The notes under the pieces were generated by a model. It ran no database searches and had not been told where the DNA came from. It worked only from the letters and a program-made list of their open reading frames with translations. The translations under genes were made by a program, and so were the position numbers. Shown piece after piece: positions 1-8,934 of a stretch of 64,000 nt of DNA. The first letter of the stretch is position 1, and each line of letters begins with the position of its first letter. This DNA comes from Escherichia coli (lineage in GTDB: Bacteria > Pseudomonadota > Gammaproteobacteria > Enterobacterales > Enterobacteriaceae): NCBI RefSeq assembly GCF_048403405.1, contig NZ_CP183129.1; one strand, given 5' to 3'.

Positions 1-1862
1 TGAATGGTGTCACGCCGCCAGCGGTGCAGCACCTGACCGCCGAAGTCACCGCAGACAGCGGGGAATATCAGGTGCTGGCGCGCTGGGACACGCCGAAGGT
101 GGTGAAGGGCGTGAGCTTCCTGCTCCGTCTGACCGTAACAGCGGATGACGGCAGTGAGCGGCTGGTCAGCACGGCCCGGACGGCGGAAACCACTTACCGC
201 TTCAGGCAGCTGGCGCTGGGGCGTTACACGCTGACGGTCCGGGCGGTAAATGCCCGGGGACAGCAGGGCGATCCGGCGTCGGTATCGTTCCGGATTAACG
301 CACCTGCAAAACCCGCCACCATTGAGCTGACGCCGGGGTATTTTCAGATAACGGCGGTCCCGCGTCTTGCGGTGTATGACCCGACGGTACAGTTTGAATT
401 CTGGTTCTCAGAAAAACGCATCACGAACACAGCACAGGTGGAAAAATCTGCCCGTTATCTGGGGACCGGCAGTCAGTGGACTGTCCAGGGGAGCCGGATT
501 AAGCCGGGGACGGATTTCTGGTTTTACGTGCGAAGCGTCAACCTGGTGGGAAAATCTGCTTTTGTGGAAGCCAGCGGGCAGCCCAGCAATGATGGTGAAG
601 GGTATCTGGAAATTTTCCGGGGGCTGATAGATGAGACGCTTCTGGGCCAGGCACTGAAAGAGCGCATTGATGCTTCAGCGCTGCGTACGGAGGTCACGCA
701 ACTGGAAGAAGACATCCGTCAGCGGATGGACACGGATATCGCAGAAGTGACCCGGAAAATCGGGAAGGCGGAAAACAGCCTCACGCAGCTGGTTGCGAAA
801 AAGAATGAGGACCAGACACTGGCCATCGCGCAGGTGAGCCAGAAAGTGGACCGGGTGAGCAGTGAAATCTCACAGACTGTCAGCCAGGGGCAGTCAGAAA
901 ACGCCCGACAGATAGCACAGGTCCGCCAGTACGTGGATAAAAAAGGGAGTGAAATTACCTCGACCACGGATAAAAAGCTGGGTGACCAGGCCGTGACCAT
1001 ACAGCAAATCCAGCGGGTTCAGTCAGACACGCGCAATGAGCTGAATGCCATGTATATGCTGAAGGTGCAGAAAACAAAAAACGGTATTCCCTATGTGGCC
1101 GGGATTGGCGCGGGGATTGAGGATGTTGATGGTCAGACCCTGAGTAACATTCTGCTGCAGGCCGATCGCATTGCGATGATTACCCCGGAGAACGGCAACA
1201 CCACGCCGCTGTTTGTGGCGCAGGGGAATCAGCTGTTCATGAACGACGTGTTCCTGAAGCGACTGTTTGCGGTGAGCATCACGTCATCCGGCAATCCTCC
1301 GACGTTTTCCCTGACGCCGGATGGCAGGCTGACAGCCCGCAATGCGGATATCAGTGGAGCCATCATGGCGAATACCGGCACGCTCAATAATGTCACCATT
1401 AACAAGAACTGTGTCATCAGAGGGAAACTGTCTGCAAACCAGATTGAAGGCGATCTCGTTAAAACAGTGGGTAAGGCTTTCCCTCGTGACTCCCGTGCAC
1501 CGAAGCGTTGGCCATCAGGAACCATTACCGTCAGGGTTTATGACGATCAGCCGTTTAACCGGCAGATTGTTATTCCGGCGGTGGCTTTCAGCGGTGCCAG
1601 ACATGAGCGGGAGAACAGCGATACTTATTCGTCATGCCGCCTGATAGTGAAGAAAAACGGTGCTGAAATTTATAACCGTACCGCGATGGATAATACGCTG
1701 GTTTACAGTGGTGTTATTGATATGCCTGCTGGTCGCGGCGACATGACGCTGGAGTTTTCTGTATCAGCATGGTGGGTAAATGGCTGGTATCCCACAGCAA
1801 GTATCAGCGATTTGCTGGTTGTTGTGATGAAGAAAGCCACTGCAGGCATCACGATTAGCTGA
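1..1862 (+). CDS. J: Tail tip/host-specificity protein J, C-terminal part (5' end upstream of window)
   Basis: Open frame runs in from the window edge (track ORF 24..1862); translation resembles lambda gpJ-family; followed by lom. Confidence 0.85.
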
Positions 1863-1881
1863 ATTTTATAACCCATATACG

Positions 1882-1906
1882 GGCGCCAGAAATGGCGCCT
1901 TTTTTA
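1882..1906 (+). terminator. Intrinsic terminator after J
   Basis: GC hairpin GGCGCC-N6-GGCGCC followed by a T-run. Confidence 0.6.
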
Positions 1907-1929
1907 TTGCAGAAAAGCGAGAGGTAATT

Positions 1930-2529
1930 ATGCGTAAATTATGTGCAGCCATTTTGTCCGCAGCCATCTGTCTGTCCGTATCCGGTGCGCCTGCATGGGC
2001 GTCTGAACATCAGTCCACACTGAGCGCGGGGTATCTTCATGCCCGTACGAACGCTCCCGGCAGCGATAATCTGAACGGGATTAACGTGAAATACCGTTAT
2101 GAGTTTACGGACGCGCTGGGGCTGATTACGTCCTTCAGTTATGCCAATGCTGAGGATGAGCAAAAAACGCACTACAGCGATACCCGCTGGCATGAAGATT
2201 CCGTGCGTAACCGCTGGTTCAGCGTGATGGCGGGGCCGTCTGTACGCGTGAATGAATGGTTCAGCGCGTATGCGATGGTGGGTGTGGCTTACAGCCGTGT
2301 GTCGACTTTCTCCGGGGATTATCTCCGCGTAACTGACAACAAGGGGAAAACGCACGATGTGCTGACCGGAAGTGATGACGGTCGCCACAGCAACACGTCT
2401 CTGGCGTGGGGGGCTGGCGTGCAGTTTAACCCGACCGAATCCGTAACCATTGACCTTGCTTATGAAGGTTCCGGTAGTGGCGACTGGCGAACGGATGCAT
2501 TTATTGTTGGTATCGGATACCGTTTCTGA
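1930..2529 (+). CDS. lom: Lom/Ail/PagC-family outer-membrane protein (phage moron)
   Basis: 199 aa with N-terminal signal peptide; INVKYRYE and C-terminal YEGSGSGDWRTD..GYRF motifs as in lambda Lom. Confidence 0.9.
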   Translation: MRKLCAAILSAAICLSVSGAPAWASEHQSTLSAGYLHARTNAPGSDNLNGINVKYRYEFTDALGLITSFSYANAEDEQKTHYSDTRWHEDSVRNRWFSVMAGPSVRVNEWFSAYAMVGVAYSRVSTFSGDYLRVTDNKGKTHDVLTGSDDGRHSNTSLAWGAGVQFNPTESVTIDLAYEGSGSGDWRTDAFIVGIGYRF

Positions 2530-2635
2530 CAACAGACGCCGATTTATCTTCTGTAAATATTGTTATGATACGCAGGTTCATCCACCTTATGGGGTGAACT
2601 GCGTTTGAGGAAACGTAAAGTTACACTGTCCTGAA

Positions 2636-2667
2636 GCCCGTGGCGTCACTGCTGCGGGCTTTTTTTA
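2636..2667 (+). terminator. Intrinsic terminator after lom
   Basis: Hairpin AAGCCCG..CGGGCTT followed by TTTTTTT. Confidence 0.6.
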
Positions 2668-2680
2668 TTGGTGGAAAAGT

Positions 2681-5600
2681 ATGACAGTAAAAATTTCTGG
2701 CGTGCTTAAAGATGGCACAGGAAAACCAGTACAGAACTGCACCATTGTGCTGAAGGCCAGACGAACCAGCAGCACGGTGGTGGTGAACACGGTGGCCTCT
2801 GAAAATCCGGATGAAGCCGGACGTTACAGCATGGATGTTGAGCATGGCCAGTACAGCGTCACCCTGCTGGTTGAAGGTTTTCCGCCTTCACATGCCGGGA
2901 CCATTACCGTCTATGAAGGTTCCAGACCAGGTACGCTGAATGATTTTCTCGGTGCCATGACGGAGGATGATGTCCGACCGGAGGCACTGCGCCGCTTTGA
3001 GCAGATGGTGGAAGAGGTGTCACGTAACGCCTCCGCGGTTGCACAGAATACGGCAGCCGCGAAAAAATCAGCCAGCGATGCCAGTGCATCAGCCAGCGAG
3101 GCGGCAACTCATGCAACCGATGCTGCAGCCTCAGCACGTGCCGCCAGCACGTCAGCCGGACAGGCCGCGTCGTCGGCTCAGTCAGCGTCTTCCAGCGCAG
3201 GAACGGCATCGACAAAGGCCCGTGAAGCAGCAAAAAGTGCTGCTGCTGCAGAGTCATCAAAAAGCGCGGCAGCTACCAGCGCCAGTGCCGCGAAAACGTC
3301 AGAAACGAATGCCGCAGCATCACAAAAATCGGCAGCCACTTCTGCATCCACAGCGACCATGAAGGCGTCAGAAGCTGCCACCTCGGCACGGGGTGCGGCG
3401 GCCTCAAAAGAGGCAGCGAAATCTTCAGAAACGAATGCATCATCAAGTGCCAGTAGTGCAGCTTCCTCGGCAACGGCGGCAGGAAATTCCGCGAAGGCGG
3501 CAAAAACGTCCGAGACGAACGCTAAGTCTTCTGAAACAGCAGCGGGACAGAGCGCCTCAGCTGCGGCAGGTTCAAAAACAGCGGCTGCATTATCTGCCAG
3601 TGCCGCGTCAACAAGTGCCGGGCAGGCCTCAGCCAGTGCCACCGCCGCCGGAAAATCGGCAGAAAGCGCCGCATCATCCGCTTCAACAGCCACAACGAAG
3701 GCTGGCAAAGCCACTGAGCAAGCCACTGCAGCAGCGAGGTCTGCTTCTGCAGCAAAAACCTCTGAAACAAATGCAAAGACTTCAGCAGACAATGCTGCTT
3801 CCTCTAAGGCGGCAGCCGCATCGTCAGCCAGTTCAGCGGCGTCATCGGCATCATCTGCGTCTGCTTCAAAAGATGAGGCGACCAGACAAGCGTCAGCAGC
3901 GAAAGGTAGTGCCACGACAGCAACAACGAAAGCATCAGAGGCGGCAGGCAGTGCGACGGCTGCATCTCAGAGCAAAGTTGCTGCTGAATCCGCGGCAACG
4001 CGCGCCGAGACAGCAGCAAAACGGGCAGAGGATATTGCATCCGCCGTGGCGCTGGAGGATGCGAGCACGACGAAAAAGGGGATAGTACAGCTCAGCAGTG
4101 CAACAAACAGCACCAGTGAAAAGCTGGCGGCAACGCCAAAGGCAGTTAAAACTGTTAAAGATAGTTCAGTTCAAAAAACTGGCGACACAATGGGAGGGCA
4201 GTTAAAAATCAGCACGATAAATGCTCTTCGAATATTCAACCAAGCCTTTGGCCTTATTTTTAGGCGTTCCGAAGATCATCTTCATCTTATTCCGACTAAT
4301 GAAGGGGAGGGGGAAAATGGAGACATCGGTTCATTAAGACCATTCTCTATAAACTTAAGATCAGGGTTGGTGTCCATCGGTAATGGACTAAAAGTTGGTG
4401 GTAGTGTTACTGGTAATTTGACCGGAAACGCAGATACTGCGACCAAGATCAAGACAGCACGTAAGATTGGGGGCGTGGCATTTGATGGATCGGCAGATAT
4501 CAACTTGCCTGGAGTCAACGCTACCGGTAATCAAAACACTACAGGTAATGCTGCGACCGCCACGAAACTTCAGGCAGCCAGAACGATTAACGGTGTGTCA
4601 TTTGATGGTAGTGCAAATATCACATTGACCCCTTCAAATATTGGGGCATTGGCATTAACTGGAGGGACTCTTTCAGGTGGTTTAACTGCTGCTGGTGAGG
4701 TTATTTCAAGGTCAGCAAATGGTCTGCGTATTGCCTATGGCAACTATGGATTCTTTATCCGAAATGATGGATCAAACACATATTTTATGTTGACAGATTC
4801 GGGTAACAGTCTTGGTACGCACAATAGCTTAAGGCCGTTTATAATTAGTAACCATACTGGCAATGTTACAATTGCAACTAAATTAAACGCGAGTGGTGGT
4901 ATCACTGGATCTTTATCGGGTAATGCAAGCACAGCAACCAAATTGCAAACTGCAAGGACAATTAACGGCGTAAAATTTGACGGCTCGGCAAATATTGAAG
5001 CGTTTCCGCCAGGTGTTCCGCTGCCGTGGCCATCAGATACACCACCTGCAGGTTATGCGATCATGCAGGGGCAGACGTTTGATAAGGCAGCATATCCGAA
5101 ACTGGCTATTGCCTATCCTTCAGGTGTTATTCCAGATATGCGCGGCTGGACAATCAAGGGCAAACCCGCCAGTGGCCGGGCCGTATTGTCTCAGGAACAG
5201 GACGGCATAAAATCGCACACCCACAGCGCCAGCGCATCCAGTACGGATTTGGGGACGAAAACCACATCGTCGTTTGATTACGGCACTAAATCCACGAATA
5301 ACACCGGGGCGCATACGCACAGTCTGAGTGGCTCTACGGGGTCTGCCGGTGTTCATACTCATGGTAATGGTATTCGTTGGCCAGGAGGCGGCGGTTCTGC
5401 GTTAGCATTTTATGATGGCGGTGGGTTCACTTATGTCCAGAATTCACAGTATCAAGTAAGCCCGGAGACTTCTTCCTATAGATCGTATTATCAACGTATT
5501 CAGACACAGTCAGCAGGTGCTCATACCCACTCGCTGTCTGGTACTGCAGCAAGTTCTGGCGCACATGCACATACTGTAGGTATTGGTGCGCATACGCACT

Positions 5601-5707
5601 CCGTTGCGATTGGTTCACATGGACACACCATCACCGTTAACGCTGCGGGTAACGCGGAAAACACCGTCAAAAACATCGCATTTAACTATATTGTGAGGCT
5701 TGCATAA
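2681..5707 (+). CDS. stf: Side tail fibre protein
   Basis: 1008 aa; N-terminus [22 protein letters not shown] and C-terminus ..[11 protein letters not shown] match lambda Stf as recalled; stop overlaps tfa start (TAATG). Confidence 0.9.
3040..4060. repeat. GC-rich Ala/Ser-rich repetitive coding region inside stf with recurring AAKTSETNA units
   Basis: Near-identical DNA blocks (..aaaacgtcagaaacgaatgc..) recur at ~3293, 3418, 3498, 3751. Confidence 0.7.
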
Positions 5708-6291
5708 TGGCATTCAGAATGAGTGAACAAGCACGGACCATAAAAATTTATAATCTGCTGGCCGGAACTAATGAATTTATTGGTGAAGGTGACGCATATA
5801 TTCCGCCTCATACAGGTCTGCCAGCAAACAGTACCGATATTGCACCACCAGATATTCCTGCTGGCTTTGTGGCTGTTTTCAACAGTGATGAGGCATCGTG
5901 GCATCTCGTTGAAGACCATCGGGGGAAAACGGTTTATGACGTAGCGTCAGGGGACGAGTTATTTATTTCTGAACTCGGTCCGTTACCGGAAAATGTTACC
6001 TGGTTATCGCCGGAAGGGGAGTTTCAGAAGTGGAACGGCACAGCCTGGGTGAAGGATACGGAAGCAGAAAAACTGTTCCGGATCCGGGAGGCGGAAGAAA
6101 CAAAAAACAACCTGATGCAGGTAGCCAGTGAGCATATTGCGCCGCTTCAGGATGCTGCAGATCTGGAAATTGCAACGGAGGAAGAAACCTCATTGCTGGA
6201 AGCCTGGAAAAAGTATCGGGTGTTGCTGAACCGTGTTGATACATCAACTGCACCTGATATTGAGTGGCCTACGAACCCTGTCAGGGAGTAA
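5707..6291 (+). CDS. tfa: Tail fibre assembly protein
   Basis: 194 aa; [38 protein letters not shown] matches lambda Tfa as recalled. Confidence 0.9.
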
Positions 6292-6342
6292 TCATTGGGA
6301 TTATGCCGCAGCACGTCTTAAGCAAGAACGTGCTGCGGTTGG
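6131..6342 (+). repeat. Direct repeat copy 1: tfa 3' end plus downstream 11-bp-stem palindrome
   Basis: About 210 bp repeated at 7182..7391; last ~95 bp nearly identical by eye. Confidence 0.85.
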
Positions 6343-6345
6343 ATG

Positions 6346-7014
6346 CTATTTTTTCCCTGAAGCGGAAAACATTACTACAGTACCTTGAACCTTGGTTTTA
6401 ACATTCTCGAAATGCTCTGAGAGTATATGTGTTAAGCCTTCTTCGGAATCTTTTGTGTTTGAAAAGATGCCTTTCTGATTGTAAATGCGCATCAGTTTTT
6501 GACCGAAGCTATTGTGCACAACTCCATCGCCAAGAATTGTGGCTCCGTATAGAGTTCCATCGTCAGTTAAGGCCTGCGCCGCATTGCGTATTACACAGCT
6601 TTTTGTAGATATATTTCCAGGCAGGCAGTGAAGAAGGTAAAACATGGAAATGGAATCAAATTGACCATGTAACGCCGCGGGATAAGGTTCAAAAACATCA
6701 TGGCTAATTTTATGTTTAATTTTTGATTCCCCAGCCCTTGTAGATGCCGCGTTCAGGCTAGCTTCGTTCAAATCCATTAAAGATATCAGACTACTCTCAG
6801 GTACGTGAGTAAGGTAAAACCCAGTTCCAACACCAATATCCAGATGGTTGTTACCTACATGTTCCAGAAAGTGTGGAAGAAGGTGTTCCTTTGTAGGACA
6901 TCCCCATGCAAGCCGATTTGATACTCCCAAAACCCACCAGTCATAAAGCTTTAGGGTAAGTGGTGTGTAAATTTTAGCCCCATCATCTGTGTTTTTTTTC
7001 ATTGATTTCACCAT
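6346..7014 (-). CDS. Class I SAM-dependent methyltransferase, substrate unknown (prophage cargo gene)
   Basis: Rossmann motif I LDIGVGTG and downstream acidic residue (LMDLNE); AT-rich by eye; a second ATG 4 codons in (MKKNT, end 7002) has the better SD (GGTGA). Confidence 0.7.
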   Translation of the reverse strand: MVKSMKKNTDDGAKIYTPLTLKLYDWWVLGVSNRLAWGCPTKEHLLPHFLEHVGNNHLDIGVGTGFYLTHVPESSLISLMDLNEASLNAASTRAGESKIKHKISHDVFEPYPAALHGQFDSISMFYLLHCLPGNISTKSCVIRNAAQALTDDGTLYGATILGDGVVHNSFGQKLMRIYNQKGIFSNTKDSEEGLTHILSEHFENVKTKVQGTVVMFSASGKK

Positions 7015-7070
7015 GTTATAGTTTTATTTGTGAATTAAATCAATTATGGCGATGAATTACAAGGGGTTAA

Positions 7071-7340
7071 ATGCTGCCGCAGCATAGCGATATTGAAATA
7101 GCCTGGTATGCTTCGATACAGCAGGAGCCGAATGGCTGGAAGACCGTCACCACACAGTTCTACATCCAGGAATTCAGTGAGTATATTGCGCCACTGCAGG
7201 ATGCTGTAGATCTGGAAATCGCAACGGAGGAAGAAAGATCGTTGCTGGAGGCATGGAATAAATATCGGGTATTGTTGAATCGTGTTGATACATCAACTGC
7301 ACCTGATATTGAGTGGCCTGCAAATCCTGTCAGGGAGTAA
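7071..7340 (+). pseudogene. tfa remnant: C-terminal ~55 codons of a tail fibre assembly gene fused to an unrelated N-terminus
   Basis: C-terminal translation ..[51 protein letters not shown] parallels the Tfa C-terminus. Confidence 0.55.
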
Positions 7341-7391
7341 TCATTGGGATTATGCCGCAGCACGTCTTAAGCAAGAACGTGCTGCGGTTGG
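7182..7391 (+). repeat. Direct repeat copy 2 (see 6131..6342)
   Basis: Same sequence block including the palindrome CCGCAGCACGT-N11-ACGTGCTGCGG. Confidence 0.85.
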
Positions 7392-7455
7392 CTGGTGAAC
7401 TTTCGATAGTGCGAGTATTGAATGATTTCCAGCCGTTACCGATTTTACGTGTTAA

Positions 7456-7704
7456 TTAGTGAACAAACCACTCGTCAGCAGACTCCCAGGTATCTTTCAG
7501 AGTTTCCTGAACAAAAGTTTTAGCTGAATCTTTATCGGCGGTGCGCGTAACAGAAAGGCCATCGTTGCTGGTAGCTTTTACGATCACCTCTACATCGTCA
7601 TAACGTTTACTGATGCGTCGGGTTAATTCTTCCTTTAACGCATCCACAGCACCGGTTGGCATTTTAGTCATTTTTTCTTTGGCTATGCAGATTTCAATAC
7701 GCAT
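7456..7704 (-). CDS. DinI-like protein (SOS-inducible, prophage-encoded)
   Basis: 82 aa; MRIE..IAK...GA(V/I)DAL..EL.RRI and C-terminal [13 protein letters not shown] match the DinI family. Confidence 0.85.
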
Positions 7705-7719
7705 AAAAGTCCCTCTACA

Positions 7720-7735
7720 CTGTGTTTGTATACAG
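7720..7735 (-). promoter_or_regulatory. LexA box (SOS operator) ahead of the dinI-like gene
   Basis: CTGT-N8-ACAG (cactgtgtttgtatacagta) 16 bp upstream of the start codon. Confidence 0.75.
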
Positions 7736-7747
7736 TATCATTTTTAA

Positions 7748-7763
7748 CTGTATGGATAAACAG
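7748..7763 (-). promoter_or_regulatory. Second LexA box in tandem
   Basis: CTGT-atggataa-ACAG. Confidence 0.65.
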
Positions 7764-7790
7764 TGTCAAGGGTGAAGGAAAGTGATTTTT

Positions 7791-7849
7791 TGGGGCATGC
7801 ATGGGGCAAAAATATTTGTTGTGGGGCATTTTGGGGCATGATTGGGACA
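7791..7849. repeat. Array of four perfect and one degenerate TGGGGCA direct repeats near the prophage-host junction
   Basis: TGGGGCA at 7791, 7802, 7822, 7832; TTGGGACA at 7842. Confidence 0.8.
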
Positions 7850-7951
7850 CTTTGTTACATATGAACTTTGCCGATTTTTATATGACATGGAAATACAACG
7901 CTTTGATTCTTCTAAATAAAAAACATGCTCTTGGGCGTTCTTTAGTGATTT

Positions 7952-8062
7952 TTAAAAATTCCGTATCACGCAGTTAAAGTGGCGGGCATACTCTTCAAGG
8001 CTGGTGATCCCCAACCGCACCCATTTAGGATGCGACCATTGCGGCAGACCGATGTAAATCAT
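7952..8062 (-). pseudogene. yecE: Truncated yecE (first ~32 codons retained, then disrupted by the prophage)
   Basis: Minus-strand translation [32 protein letters not shown] then diverges and stops; ATG overlaps yecD stop (ATGA). Confidence 0.6.
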
Positions 8063-8640
8063 AATGCGTTGAGGATCTCTTCCACACTGCGCACACGGGC
8101 GATGCGTGGGTAGATATGGTTGATGCTGTTATTGTGCTGCTCGGCGCTGGCGGCGCTGCAGGCGTCTTCGGCAATCACCAGATTAAAACCGAGTTCCCAG
8201 GCATTGCGGGCGGTGGATTCAACACCGATATTGGTCGAGATCCCACATAATACTATTGTATCGATACCCCGGCGGCGTAATTGCAACTCCAGATCCGTAC
8301 CGTAAAACGCACCCCATTGATGTTTGATGATTTCGATATCGCTGTCGGTTGCACCTAATGCAGCAGGATGTTGCCACCAGTTTTCGGGTAACACTTTAGC
8401 AGGGGAGGGGACATCAACCGGCTGTTTTAATGCTTCGGCATAATCGGCAGACCAGCCAACGCGCACCAGAAACACGGGCTGACCGCTCGCGCGAAATTTC
8501 GCCGCCAGCTTCCCGGCGCGATTAACCACCTCATCGGCAGTATGTGGACCTCCGGCAAAAGGTAAGATGCCTTCTTGTAAATCAATCACCACCAGCGCAG
8601 TGGTTTTAGCATTAAGTTCAAGCATGATGACTCCTGACAA
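8059..8640 (-). CDS. yecD: Isochorismatase-family hydrolase YecD
   Basis: 193-aa ORF (K-12 form starts at MLELNAK, 8625); position next to aspS. Confidence 0.85.
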
Positions 8641-8934
8641 AACAAAATCGTGCCTCTCACCTTAATGCGATTAGCCGATGGCGGAACGACAAATTTTGTT
8701 AATTTTTATGAGTTCGGGCAACACCTTTATAGCAAACTGGCGTAGAGTCTGATTTCAGGCCCGATATAAAGTGGTAACGAGGTGTTCCAGCGCGGGCCAG
8801 GCTCTTACGGTGCGGCAGAATTTCCAGTATAATAGCCGCCTTTTTTCATTCAGTTGTGACATACAGCTAACGCTGCGACTTGGTCACCTGCGCAGCAGGG
8901 GGCATCCGCCGGCAGCTAAGTTAAGGGATATCTC

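Follow-up and report, generated by a model that had tools for sequence, protein, structure and literature searches.

The homology of Stf with gp37 and the shuffling of tail-fibre modules among lambda, T4, P2, P1 and Mu are classical, according to the account of earlier work (Montag 1989; Haggard-Ljungquist 1992) given in PMC3945230. Experiments have shown that lambda can swap stf-tfa DNA with the prophages Rac and Qin; the recombination is of the relaxed homologous kind and takes place in stretches of 88-95 % identity (PMC3945230). In T4 gp37, the HxH motifs coordinate seven iron atoms (PMC6957217, PMC11705849) and residues 933-953 bind LPS and OmpC (PMC6957217). The stretch of Escherichia coli DNA analysed here, a window of 64 kb, begins within gene J, and the coding region for the J C-terminus (24..1862) is followed by lom (1930..2529), stf (2681..5707, + strand) and tfa, the gene of the tail fibre assembly chaperone (5707..6291, + strand; PF02413, E = 1.9e-44), the start of which overlaps the stf stop codon. 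With J and lom upstream of stf and tfa downstream, the gene order J-lom-stf-tfa is that of lambda. The stf gene is a single open reading frame of 1008 codons with a product identical to RefSeq WP_000216486.1, and the chaperone has 94 % identity to its lambda counterpart (orf-194). The stf gene is intact and otherwise unremarkable: it codes for the side tail fibre of a lambda-like prophage of E. coli. Position, a PF08400 anchor and a PF02413 Tfa all agree with the lambdoid Stf, only colinearity with lambda over the whole length is lacking; this is the usual variation within the family and the membership stands. A tfa remnant or duplicated fragment is located at 7071..7340 on the same strand as stf and tfa. 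A moron lies downstream as well, and both point to an earlier rearrangement.

The fibre starts with an anchor domain (aa 1-115; 2681..3025, + strand) for attachment to the tail. The Pfam profile phage_tail_N (PF08400) matched aa 1-134 over its full length of 1-134 (E = 5.6e-70) and aa 1-94 were 87 % identical to the lambda Stf chain (PDB 9e7m/9mgh, E = 3.6e-47), so the assignment as side tail fibre, made before from the sequence alone, was confirmed. The third-position GC content (GC3) of the anchor is host-like (0.55). The following rod of about 350 residues (aa 116-465; 3026..4075, + strand) has a GC content of 0.59, consists to 72-78 % of Ala, Ser and Thr and carries AAKTSETNA-type repeats (KTSETNA three times, SETNA four times), as described for a GC-rich N-terminal third in the sequence-only reading. 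An unbroken heptad periodicity is present, with Ala recurring at 3.5/7.0 residues (power 9.2 versus 2.4 for the 99th percentile of shuffled sequences), and the rod probably forms a trimeric alpha-helical coiled coil. Tandem Repeats Finder and searches for direct DNA repeats revealed only weak repeats in the rod, with copies 67-82 % alike at spacings of multiples of 21 nt, and no DNA repeats in the centre of the gene. The repeats are old and are seen chiefly at the protein level. Residues 185-490 are common to the fibre of phage Cyrano, with 85 % identity at the DNA level. The N-terminal half ends in a junction motif of 25 residues (4076..4150, + strand) that includes a 24-nt block (4123-4146) identical to the relatives and is also present in Mu gpS; homology to the relatives stops at 4150.

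Compared to lambda Stf, the protein is alike at both ends and different in between. Ur-lambda Stf has 774 aa, whereas lambda PaPa carries the gene split into orf-401 and orf-314. Lambda Stf matches aa 1-352, 417-499 and 764-1008 only, with 77-78 % identity in the rod and 65 % in collar and needle; aa 500-763 have no counterpart. Lambda lacks the central shaft of about 290 aa and about 100 residues of the rod, and its head cassette differs. It has eight HxH motifs versus seven here, and its additional SFDYGTKTTG repeat is missing in the present fibre.

The central module (aa 491-781; 4151..5022, + strand) is delimited by a sharp loss and regain of homology to the fibres of 204576, mEp332, lambda and Cyrano, and an AT-rich centre with GVxFDGSAxI repeats, initially placed at ~4145..4990, was indeed found, with these limits. 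It contains a diverged first domain of the gp34/Mu-S type (aa ~505-570; 4193..4390, + strand), two fibre repeat units of the form TATKxxxARxIxGVxFDGSAxI (aa 582-609 and 622-649; 4424..4627, + strand), a canonical gp34/Mu-S-type domain (aa 668-744; 4682..4912, + strand) and a third repeat unit (aa 747-774; 4919..5002, + strand). The GVxFDGSAxI-type motifs of the three units are at aa 598, 638 and 763. The profile PF21446 (Gp34_trimer) matched aa 620-722 (E = 1e-26) with a score of 94.2 bits, the curated cut-off being 27, and the canonical domain aligned with residues 268-350 of Mu gpS (PDB 5yvq, E = 9e-26, about 80 % identity) and with residues ~1037-1110 of T4 gp34; the structures 5nxf, 4uxe and 9x3r were matched with E ~4e-17. 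Both gp34/Mu-S-type copies align to the same domain of the 204576 and mEp332 Stf. From these alignments the centre appears to be a beta-structured shaft of two gp34/Mu-S-type domains and three repeats, its recognisable parts being homologous to shaft domains. The S fibres of Mu, P1 and P7, P2 H and T4 gp34 share the junction motif, the gp34/Mu-S-type domain and the TATK...FDGSA repeats, but they belong to contractile-tailed phages, have other anchors and tips, and several are encoded within invertible segments. Among phage DNA sequences, no relative of the centre exceeded ~75 % identity. The best protein relatives were the fibre of CMS-2020a and the S fibres of P7 (P1-type) with 65-70 %. A centre of high identity in another fibre context was found neither among phages (distant-mode DNA search, tblastn) nor in E. 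coli genomes. Two apparent cases of a foreign context turned out to be stf itself: in strain 203740 the 5' part of the gene has diverged, and the other copy is disrupted by IS3.

Downstream of the shaft, the homology to lambdoid Stf tips restarts at an identical block of 17 nt (5024-5040) that encodes PWPSD. The collar domain (aa 782-845; 5023..5215, + strand; GC3 0.53) was recognized by PF07484 (Collar) at aa 778-825 with E = 4e-10. It is followed by the outgoing strand of the needle with HxH motifs 1-3 (aa 846-894; 5216..5362, + strand), which align with T4 gp37 His 883, 915 and 929, by the head or distal tip (aa 895-947; 5363..5521, + strand) and by the returning strand (aa 948-1008; 5522..5704, + strand), which bears HxH motifs 4-7 and ends in a conserved C-terminus. 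The seven motifs (SHTHS, AHTHS, VHTHG, AHTHS, AHAHT, AHTHS and SHGHT at aa 846, 878, 892, 948, 962, 971 and 980) extend over nt 5216-5626, close to the ~5215..5640 given earlier for an HxH-rich tip. The proposed affiliation to T4 gp37 proved to be a true homology rather than a mere resemblance of motifs: aa 743-1008 aligned with chain residues 2-242 of PDB 2xgf (E = 1.2e-79), and the HxH motifs corresponded one-to-one with T4 His 883, 915, 929, 966, 980, 989 and 998. In an alignment of 124 tips, including T4 and lambda, all 14 histidines were at least 99 % conserved. Collar, needle and C-terminus are thus alike in both fibres, but outside these parts the protein shows no relationship to gp37, and T4 uses the chaperone gp38 instead of the lambda-type Tfa encoded here. 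An AlphaFold2 monomer model of aa 776-1008, calculated with an alignment of 36 sequences, was of unusably low confidence (pLDDT 45, pTM 0.17), as would be expected for an intertwined, metal-bound trimer.

The head is hypervariable, with ~10 % column identity across the 124 tips and at least 16 head types on the conserved His scaffold, and has a GC3 of 0.35. With 53 residues, rich in Gly, Tyr and Gln, it is the longest type seen on the needle scaffold with seven HxH motifs. Phage 204576 and E. coli S88 share this head, whereas it is replaced in mEp332, StfR, StfQ, lambda and T4. The T4 residues 933-953 map onto aa 895-947, but these LPS/OmpC-contacting residues are not conserved: the T4 segment between HxH motifs 3 and 4 has 34 aa, and the head is 19 aa longer and non-homologous. 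It is likewise unrelated to the OmpC/LPS-binding head of lambda. Thus, the tip shares the architecture of T4, but the same receptor specificity should not be assumed. Since a part that determines specificity would be expected to be hypervariable on a conserved scaffold, the head probably is the part that contacts the receptor, by analogy to T4.

The lambdoid relatives show 85-95 % identity on both sides of the centre, as far as nt 4150 on the left and beginning at nt 5024 on the right, whereas the sequence between these points is unrelated. In detail, 204576, mEp332, Turner, ev099 and the K-12 prophage fibres StfR (Rac) and StfQ (Qin) share anchor, rod and left junction at 88-90 % DNA identity to nt 4150 and collar and needle at 86-95 % from nt 5024, but have another, longer centre of ~400 aa with one gp34-type domain that is 45-50 % identical. 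The Stf of 204576 may serve as example, with 90 % identity over aa 1-499, a non-colinear centre and ~99 % identity over aa 775-1008. Full-length colinear homology to one known Stf was observed in no sequenced phage and not in lambda. The breakpoints 4150/4151 and 5023/5024 recur in several independent relatives, and the joins fall at short conserved sequences that are domain borders, namely LAATPKAVK, PWPSD and the HxH-bearing needle strands. Hence, stf is a mosaic produced by recombination, the central exchange suggested by the sequence-only reading is real, and the head is a further cassette that has been exchanged independently of the centre. The exchange probably proceeded by homologous recombination.

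Base composition alone would have been a poor witness of this exchange. The GC content falls to 0.43 in the centre (nt 4163-5005), with a drop of GC2 from ~0.8 in the rod to ~0.5, and this break had been taken as sign of horizontal transfer. When the protein sequence was combined with the codon usage of the host, 0.111 of the observed GC drop of 0.160 was predicted; about 70 % of the drop is amino acid composition, the codons for Ala, Ser and Thr, and the GC break by itself would therefore not show an exchange. What remains of the compositional argument are the steps in GC3, which differs between rod and centre (0.446 versus 0.342, chi-square p = 0.01) and between centre and collar (0.342 versus 0.525, p = 0.0009), so that GC3 heterogeneity tracks the module borders. 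A single lineage without module exchange, in which the contrast of an Ala-rich rod and a Gly/Asn/Thr-rich beta shaft caused the break, would account for the prominent change in GC2, but not for these steps, and it is hardly credible in view of the decisive observation that the relatives lose all homology at 4151 and regain ~95 % identity at 5024. A different objection concerns the function of the exchanged piece. The centre had been considered as the receptor-binding module, so that the swap would directly retarget the fibre. No other part of the gene is as rare or as rich in AT, and the shafts of some fibres have binding sites at their sides. The shaft may contribute to receptor binding. As the binding module proper the centre is improbable: the domains that can be identified in it have their homologues in shaft regions of T4 gp34 and Mu gpS that are not terminal, the fibre ends in a complete collar, needle and head of the gp37 type with the T4 receptor contacts mapping to the head (PMC6957217), and it is the head and not the centre that is hypervariable on a conserved scaffold.

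Concerning the origin of the mosaic, site-specific recombination by an invertase of the Din family (Cin/Gin/Pin) would make the centre a relic of an invertible segment. Invertase-driven exchange of fibre parts has reportedly been proposed among P1, Mu, P2 and e14, and the nearest phage protein relatives of the centre include P7 Sv', located on an invertible segment, and P1 and Mu fibres. It has also been proposed that invertases drove the exchange of stf in ancient times (PMC3945230). We consider this origin very unlikely for the present gene, because the junctions sit within ordinary sequence homology and the tfa remnant is not inverted. A search for the Din crossover site TTN5AAACCNNGGTTTN5AA with up to three mismatches found none near stf; the three matches in the window, a number not above chance, were all located at 22 kb or beyond, and no invertase ORF was present beside stf/tfa among the ORFs in 1..9000. 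Finally, stf may be regarded as the decaying relic of a defective prophage that provides no functional fibre. Of the prophage, no more than the tail end is contained in the window, the tfa fragment and the moron indicate a past rearrangement, and one copy of the gene is disrupted by IS3. Decay is nevertheless unlikely for an intact ORF that is 100 % identical in many genomes and is accompanied by an intact tfa. In strain 7/2, where the compared stretch begins within the small terminase subunit, the same gene sits in a prophage in which all morphogenesis genes between the large terminase subunit and tfa, both included, are annotated as intact.

With a probability of roughly 0.9, the locus is best explained as a lambda-like prophage stf that encodes a modular fibre and is a recombinational mosaic of centre and head cassettes. 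Judged from the homologues, the fibre would be a homotrimer docked on the tail tip by the lambda-type N-terminal domain, the Ala-heptad rod of ~350 residues, a probable coiled coil, would set the reach, and shaft, collar and T4-gp37-type needle would follow in this order with increasing distance from the phage. Each chain is expected to run out and back in the needle, which would provide six His per HxH layer of the trimer, and by analogy to the iron in T4 the seven layers may chelate seven metal ions along the axis. The 53-residue head at the needle turn would contact the host receptor, and the adjacent lambda-type Tfa would fold the tip. The centre (4151-5022) and, independently, the head (~5363-5521) are cassettes that alternate with others between flanks of wide occurrence.

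The occurrence of the modules in E. coli differs. Some part of stf matched in 5177 of 5426 genomes and the tip in 3907, whereas the centre was far rarer than the flanks (668 of 5426). The tip was found at ≥80 % coverage in 716 genomes versus 422 that hold the whole gene; identical copies of the whole gene are present in about 420 complete genomes, and the IS3-disrupted copy in one strain. The gene is already known, its exact protein being in RefSeq and the iron-binding HxH needle a solved structure. As a discovery it carries little weight; the way in which modules of tail fibres are shuffled is illustrated here as in a textbook. The borders 4150/4151 and 5023/5024, the head at ~5363-5521 and the catalogue of at least 16 heads are usable coordinates of modest practical value, which could aid the engineering of chimeric Stf for phage-based delivery (cf. 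PMC11338833) or the prediction of prophage host range from sequence. The long, unrelated head and the rare additional shaft module lead us to a tentative suggestion, to which we give somewhat less than even odds: the fibre may recognise a receptor other than OmpC, and the centre may be selected for reach or flexibility, e.g., for spanning O-antigen or capsule, and not be neutral filler. If true, head and centre, as cassettes with sharp borders, would be ready-made natural swap points for the retargeting of lambda-based delivery particles.

The side tail fibre gene stf (2681..5707, + strand) is a single unbroken ORF of 1008 aa. The C-terminal 612 aa of J, the lambda-type tip attachment protein, and an Ail/Lom gene lie upstream; directly downstream, the start of the tail fibre assembly gene tfa (Caudo_TAP, E=2e-44) overlaps the stf stop codon. 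Lambda has the same gene order J–lom–stf–tfa, and its Tfa is 94 % identical to the chaperone encoded here. Many complete E. coli genomes contain a gene with 100 % identical DNA, WP_000216486.1, whose annotation reads "prophage tail fiber N-terminal domain-containing protein"; there are 418 records with a match of at least 99 %, and 422 genomes in which 80 % or more of the gene is covered. An N-terminal third of Ala/Ser-rich repeats, an AT-rich repeat centre and a His-x-His (HxH) tip had been described correctly and with good coordinates by the sequence-only reading. Its proposal of a mosaic gene with a swapped centre at ~4145..4990 was borne out by identity steps against 204576, mEp332, Cyrano and lambda, a comparison that argues decisively for the swap. 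DNA homology ends at nt 4150 against the first three and at nt 4149 against lambda, and is back at nt 5024 against 204576 and mEp332. In ungapped alignments identity is lost within one codon, right after a perfect 24-nt block, GCTGGCGGCAACGCCAAAGGCAGT (LAATPKAV), and is regained at the right border at a common 17-nt block, CCGTGGCCATCAGATAC (PWPSD). These sharp transitions thus delimit an exchanged module of nt 4151–5022 (aa 491–781). The 204576 protein is 90 % identical over aa 1–499 and ~99 % over aa 775–1008, but its centre is non-colinear, ~110 aa longer, and has just one 50 %-identical domain in common. Lambda Stf shares 77–78 % identity in anchor and rod, where ~100 rod residues of our Stf lack a counterpart, and 65 % in collar and needle, with nothing corresponding to aa 500–763. 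The coverage of stf by a single sequenced phage does not exceed 71 %. Genome counts point the same way: of 5426 E. coli genomes, 5177 contained part of stf, 3907 the tip and only 668 the centre; 422 of the latter have this same stf. The tip occurs at a coverage of at least 80 % in 716 genomes, thus ~300 carry it on another centre, e.g., strain S88.

The centre carries GVxFDGSAxI-type repeats at aa 598, 638 and 763, each preceded by a TATK motif. Residues 620–722 match Pfam Gp34_trimer (E=1e-26). Mu gpS residues 268–350 (PDB 5yvq) are ~80 % identical to aa 670–751, and T4 gp34 residues ~1037–1110 (PDB 5nxf, 4uxe, 9x3r), within a region described as triple beta-helix/beta-prism (PMC5537660), match aa ~670–744. 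A second, diverged copy of the gp34/Mu-S-type domain is located at aa ~505–570. Judged by these domains, the swapped centre is a shaft module and not the tip; the earlier assignment as a receptor-binding module was not upheld, the putative determinant being a separate head within the tip. For the module as a whole, the closest proteins from sequenced phages are the fibre of CMS-2020a (65 % protein identity over 91 % of its length), the S fibre of P7 (Sv', 70 % over 69 %) and, at ~50 %, fibres of 9g-like siphoviruses. At the DNA level no match exceeded ~75 % identity, and a donor was not found. In E. coli SW070919 (L007 1967-6306) the same stf is broken by an IS3-family insertion within the central module, a naturally inactivated copy.

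The rod has a GC content of 0.59 and the centre one of 0.43, a drop that arises mostly at second codon positions (GC2 ~0.8 to ~0.5). When the protein was recoded with host codon usage, taken from 21 host ORFs of the window, 0.111 of the observed drop of 0.160 was predicted. The compositional break noticed initially is therefore present, but ~70 % of it is an amino-acid effect of the Ala/Ser/Thr content. The synonymous-site signal left after recoding is real: GC3 is 0.55 in the anchor (host-like), 0.45 in the rod, 0.34 in the centre (p=0.01 vs rod), 0.53 in collar and outgoing needle (p=0.0009 vs centre), 0.35 in the head and 0.40 in the returning needle. By itself, composition is suggestive of exchange, not decisive.

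In the rod (aa 116–465, nt 3026–4075), Ala, Ser and Thr make up 72–78 % of the residues; there are three copies of KTSETNA and four of SETNA. The DNA repeat copies, spaced by multiples of 21 nt, are only 67–82 % alike and thus old. A very strong Ala periodicity of 3.5/7.0 residues over ~350 residues (power 9.2 vs a shuffle 99th percentile of 2.4) suggests a long heptad coiled coil. Several long ORFs overlap the rod in other frames on both strands, e.g., 3178..3915 (-, 245 aa) and 3393..4085 (+, 230 aa), and most probably arise as a side effect of its periodic, GCN-rich codons; lambda has an annotated antisense orf206b in the equivalent place. Over nt 3234-4150, which encode aa 185-490 of the rod and left junction, phage Cyrano (108 kb; L005 1628-2544) is 85 % identical in DNA. 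Its fibre of 1341 aa, annotated as P1 S homologue, differs in N-terminus and distal part, thus the coiled-coil rod is mobile as a module in its own right.

The assignment of a gp37-type tip with HxH repeats, placed at ~5215..5640, was confirmed: aa 743–1008 match the T4 gp37 receptor-binding tip crystal (2xgf) with E=1.2e-79. The tip has exactly seven HxH motifs, at aa 846, 878, 892, 948, 962, 971 and 980 (nt 5216–5626), which pair one-to-one with T4 His 883, 915, 929, 966, 980, 989 and 998. Seven iron atoms on the axis of the T4 needle are coordinated by these motifs (PMC6957217; PMC11705849), and by analogy metal binding is predicted here. Across an alignment of 124 tips, made up of the window tip, those of lambda, mEp332 and T4, and representatives of 120 database clusters, conservation reaches at least 99 % at each of the 14 HxH histidines; the collar and the two needle strands hardly vary. 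The lambda needle (orf-314, L004 3030-3971) exceeds those of our gene (5216-5704) and T4 by one HxH layer (GAHQHPVVI) and one SFDYGTKTTG repeat; needle length thus changes by whole repeats, while the other His layers keep register. The head, aa 895–947 between the third and fourth HxH, has a column identity of only ~10 % across the 124 tips and falls into no fewer than 16 types, 32–53 aa long and unrelated in sequence; ours is the longest type and common to 11 other clusters. The residues identified by mutagenesis in LPS/OmpC binding of T4 gp37 (I933, N937, G938, G940, G942, G943, K945, S947, Y949, I951, Y953; PMC6957217) map exactly into this hypervariable interval, which makes the head a putative receptor specificity cassette. 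The head is exchanged independently of the centre: mEp332, Rac StfR and Qin StfQ have other heads between collar and needle sequences that are 86–93 % identical in DNA to our stf.

Both centre junctions lie within short stretches conserved among otherwise different fibres. An exchange of stf–tfa between lambda and the Rac/Qin prophages by relaxed homologous recombination at 88–95 % identical stretches was obtained experimentally (PMC3945230). Junction position and precedent thus favour homologous recombination at conserved linkers as the process that would have joined the centre. Din-family invertases, proposed in the literature for ancient inter-family transfers (PMC3945230), could also generate a mosaic; however, that origin has no support here, with no crossover-like site near stf, no invertase ORF within 1..9000, and a downstream tfa remnant in direct, not inverted orientation. 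E. coli 203740 (L006 3532-6558) has an Stf of the same length as ours. From nt 4031 onwards the two genes are 100 % identical; in the first 1350 nt, identity is mostly 83–95 % but reaches 100 % in a patch at 3581–3880. This patchwork indicates ongoing recombination within the family, here in anchor and rod. Downstream of its tfa, 203740 has other cargo: a GIY-YIG protein, a Dcm methyltransferase and a restriction enzyme remnant.

In the window, a direct duplication with 90 % identity (6115-6345 and 7164-7394) comprises the last 177 nt of tfa together with the 54 nt that follow. The copies bracket a class I SAM-dependent methyltransferase gene (MTase, 6346-7014, - strand) with a low GC of 0.41; the second forms the 3' end of tfa' (7071-7340, + strand), an 89-aa remnant with a different N-terminal part. 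The arrangement resembles the outcome of a moron insertion or a cassette replacement in which the old tfa end stayed in place. Strains 7/2 and SW070919 have this tfa-MTase-tfa' layout in their annotation too. Beyond the stf-tfa-MTase-tfa' block come a dinI-like gene and then yecD and aspS in the window (7456-10707), and potB after the identical block of strain 7/2 (L001 24889 onward). Prophages at different chromosomal sites thus carry the same fibre cassette.

Such a mosaic with a gp37-type tip is of a well-known kind, and hundreds of catalogued genomes contain the identical gene. That lambda Stf and T4 gp37 are related, and that unrelated phages exchange tail-fibre modules, has been known since 1989–1992, as cited in PMC3945230 (refs 71–73). 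In the proposed working of the fibre, the N-terminal domain would dock it on the tail. The 94-residue N-terminal piece of lambda accounts for 24 chains over entries 9e7m and 9mgh; given an even split, 12 chains per entry would be four trimers, and homologues suggest a trimeric Stf here as well. Coiled-coil rod and beta shaft would supply reach. Initial, reversible contact to a surface receptor would fall to the collar, needle and head, with Tfa aiding their folding and His-bound metals stapling them; lambda Stf plays this part towards OmpC (PMC11338833), and T4 gp37 towards LPS and OmpC (PMC6957217).
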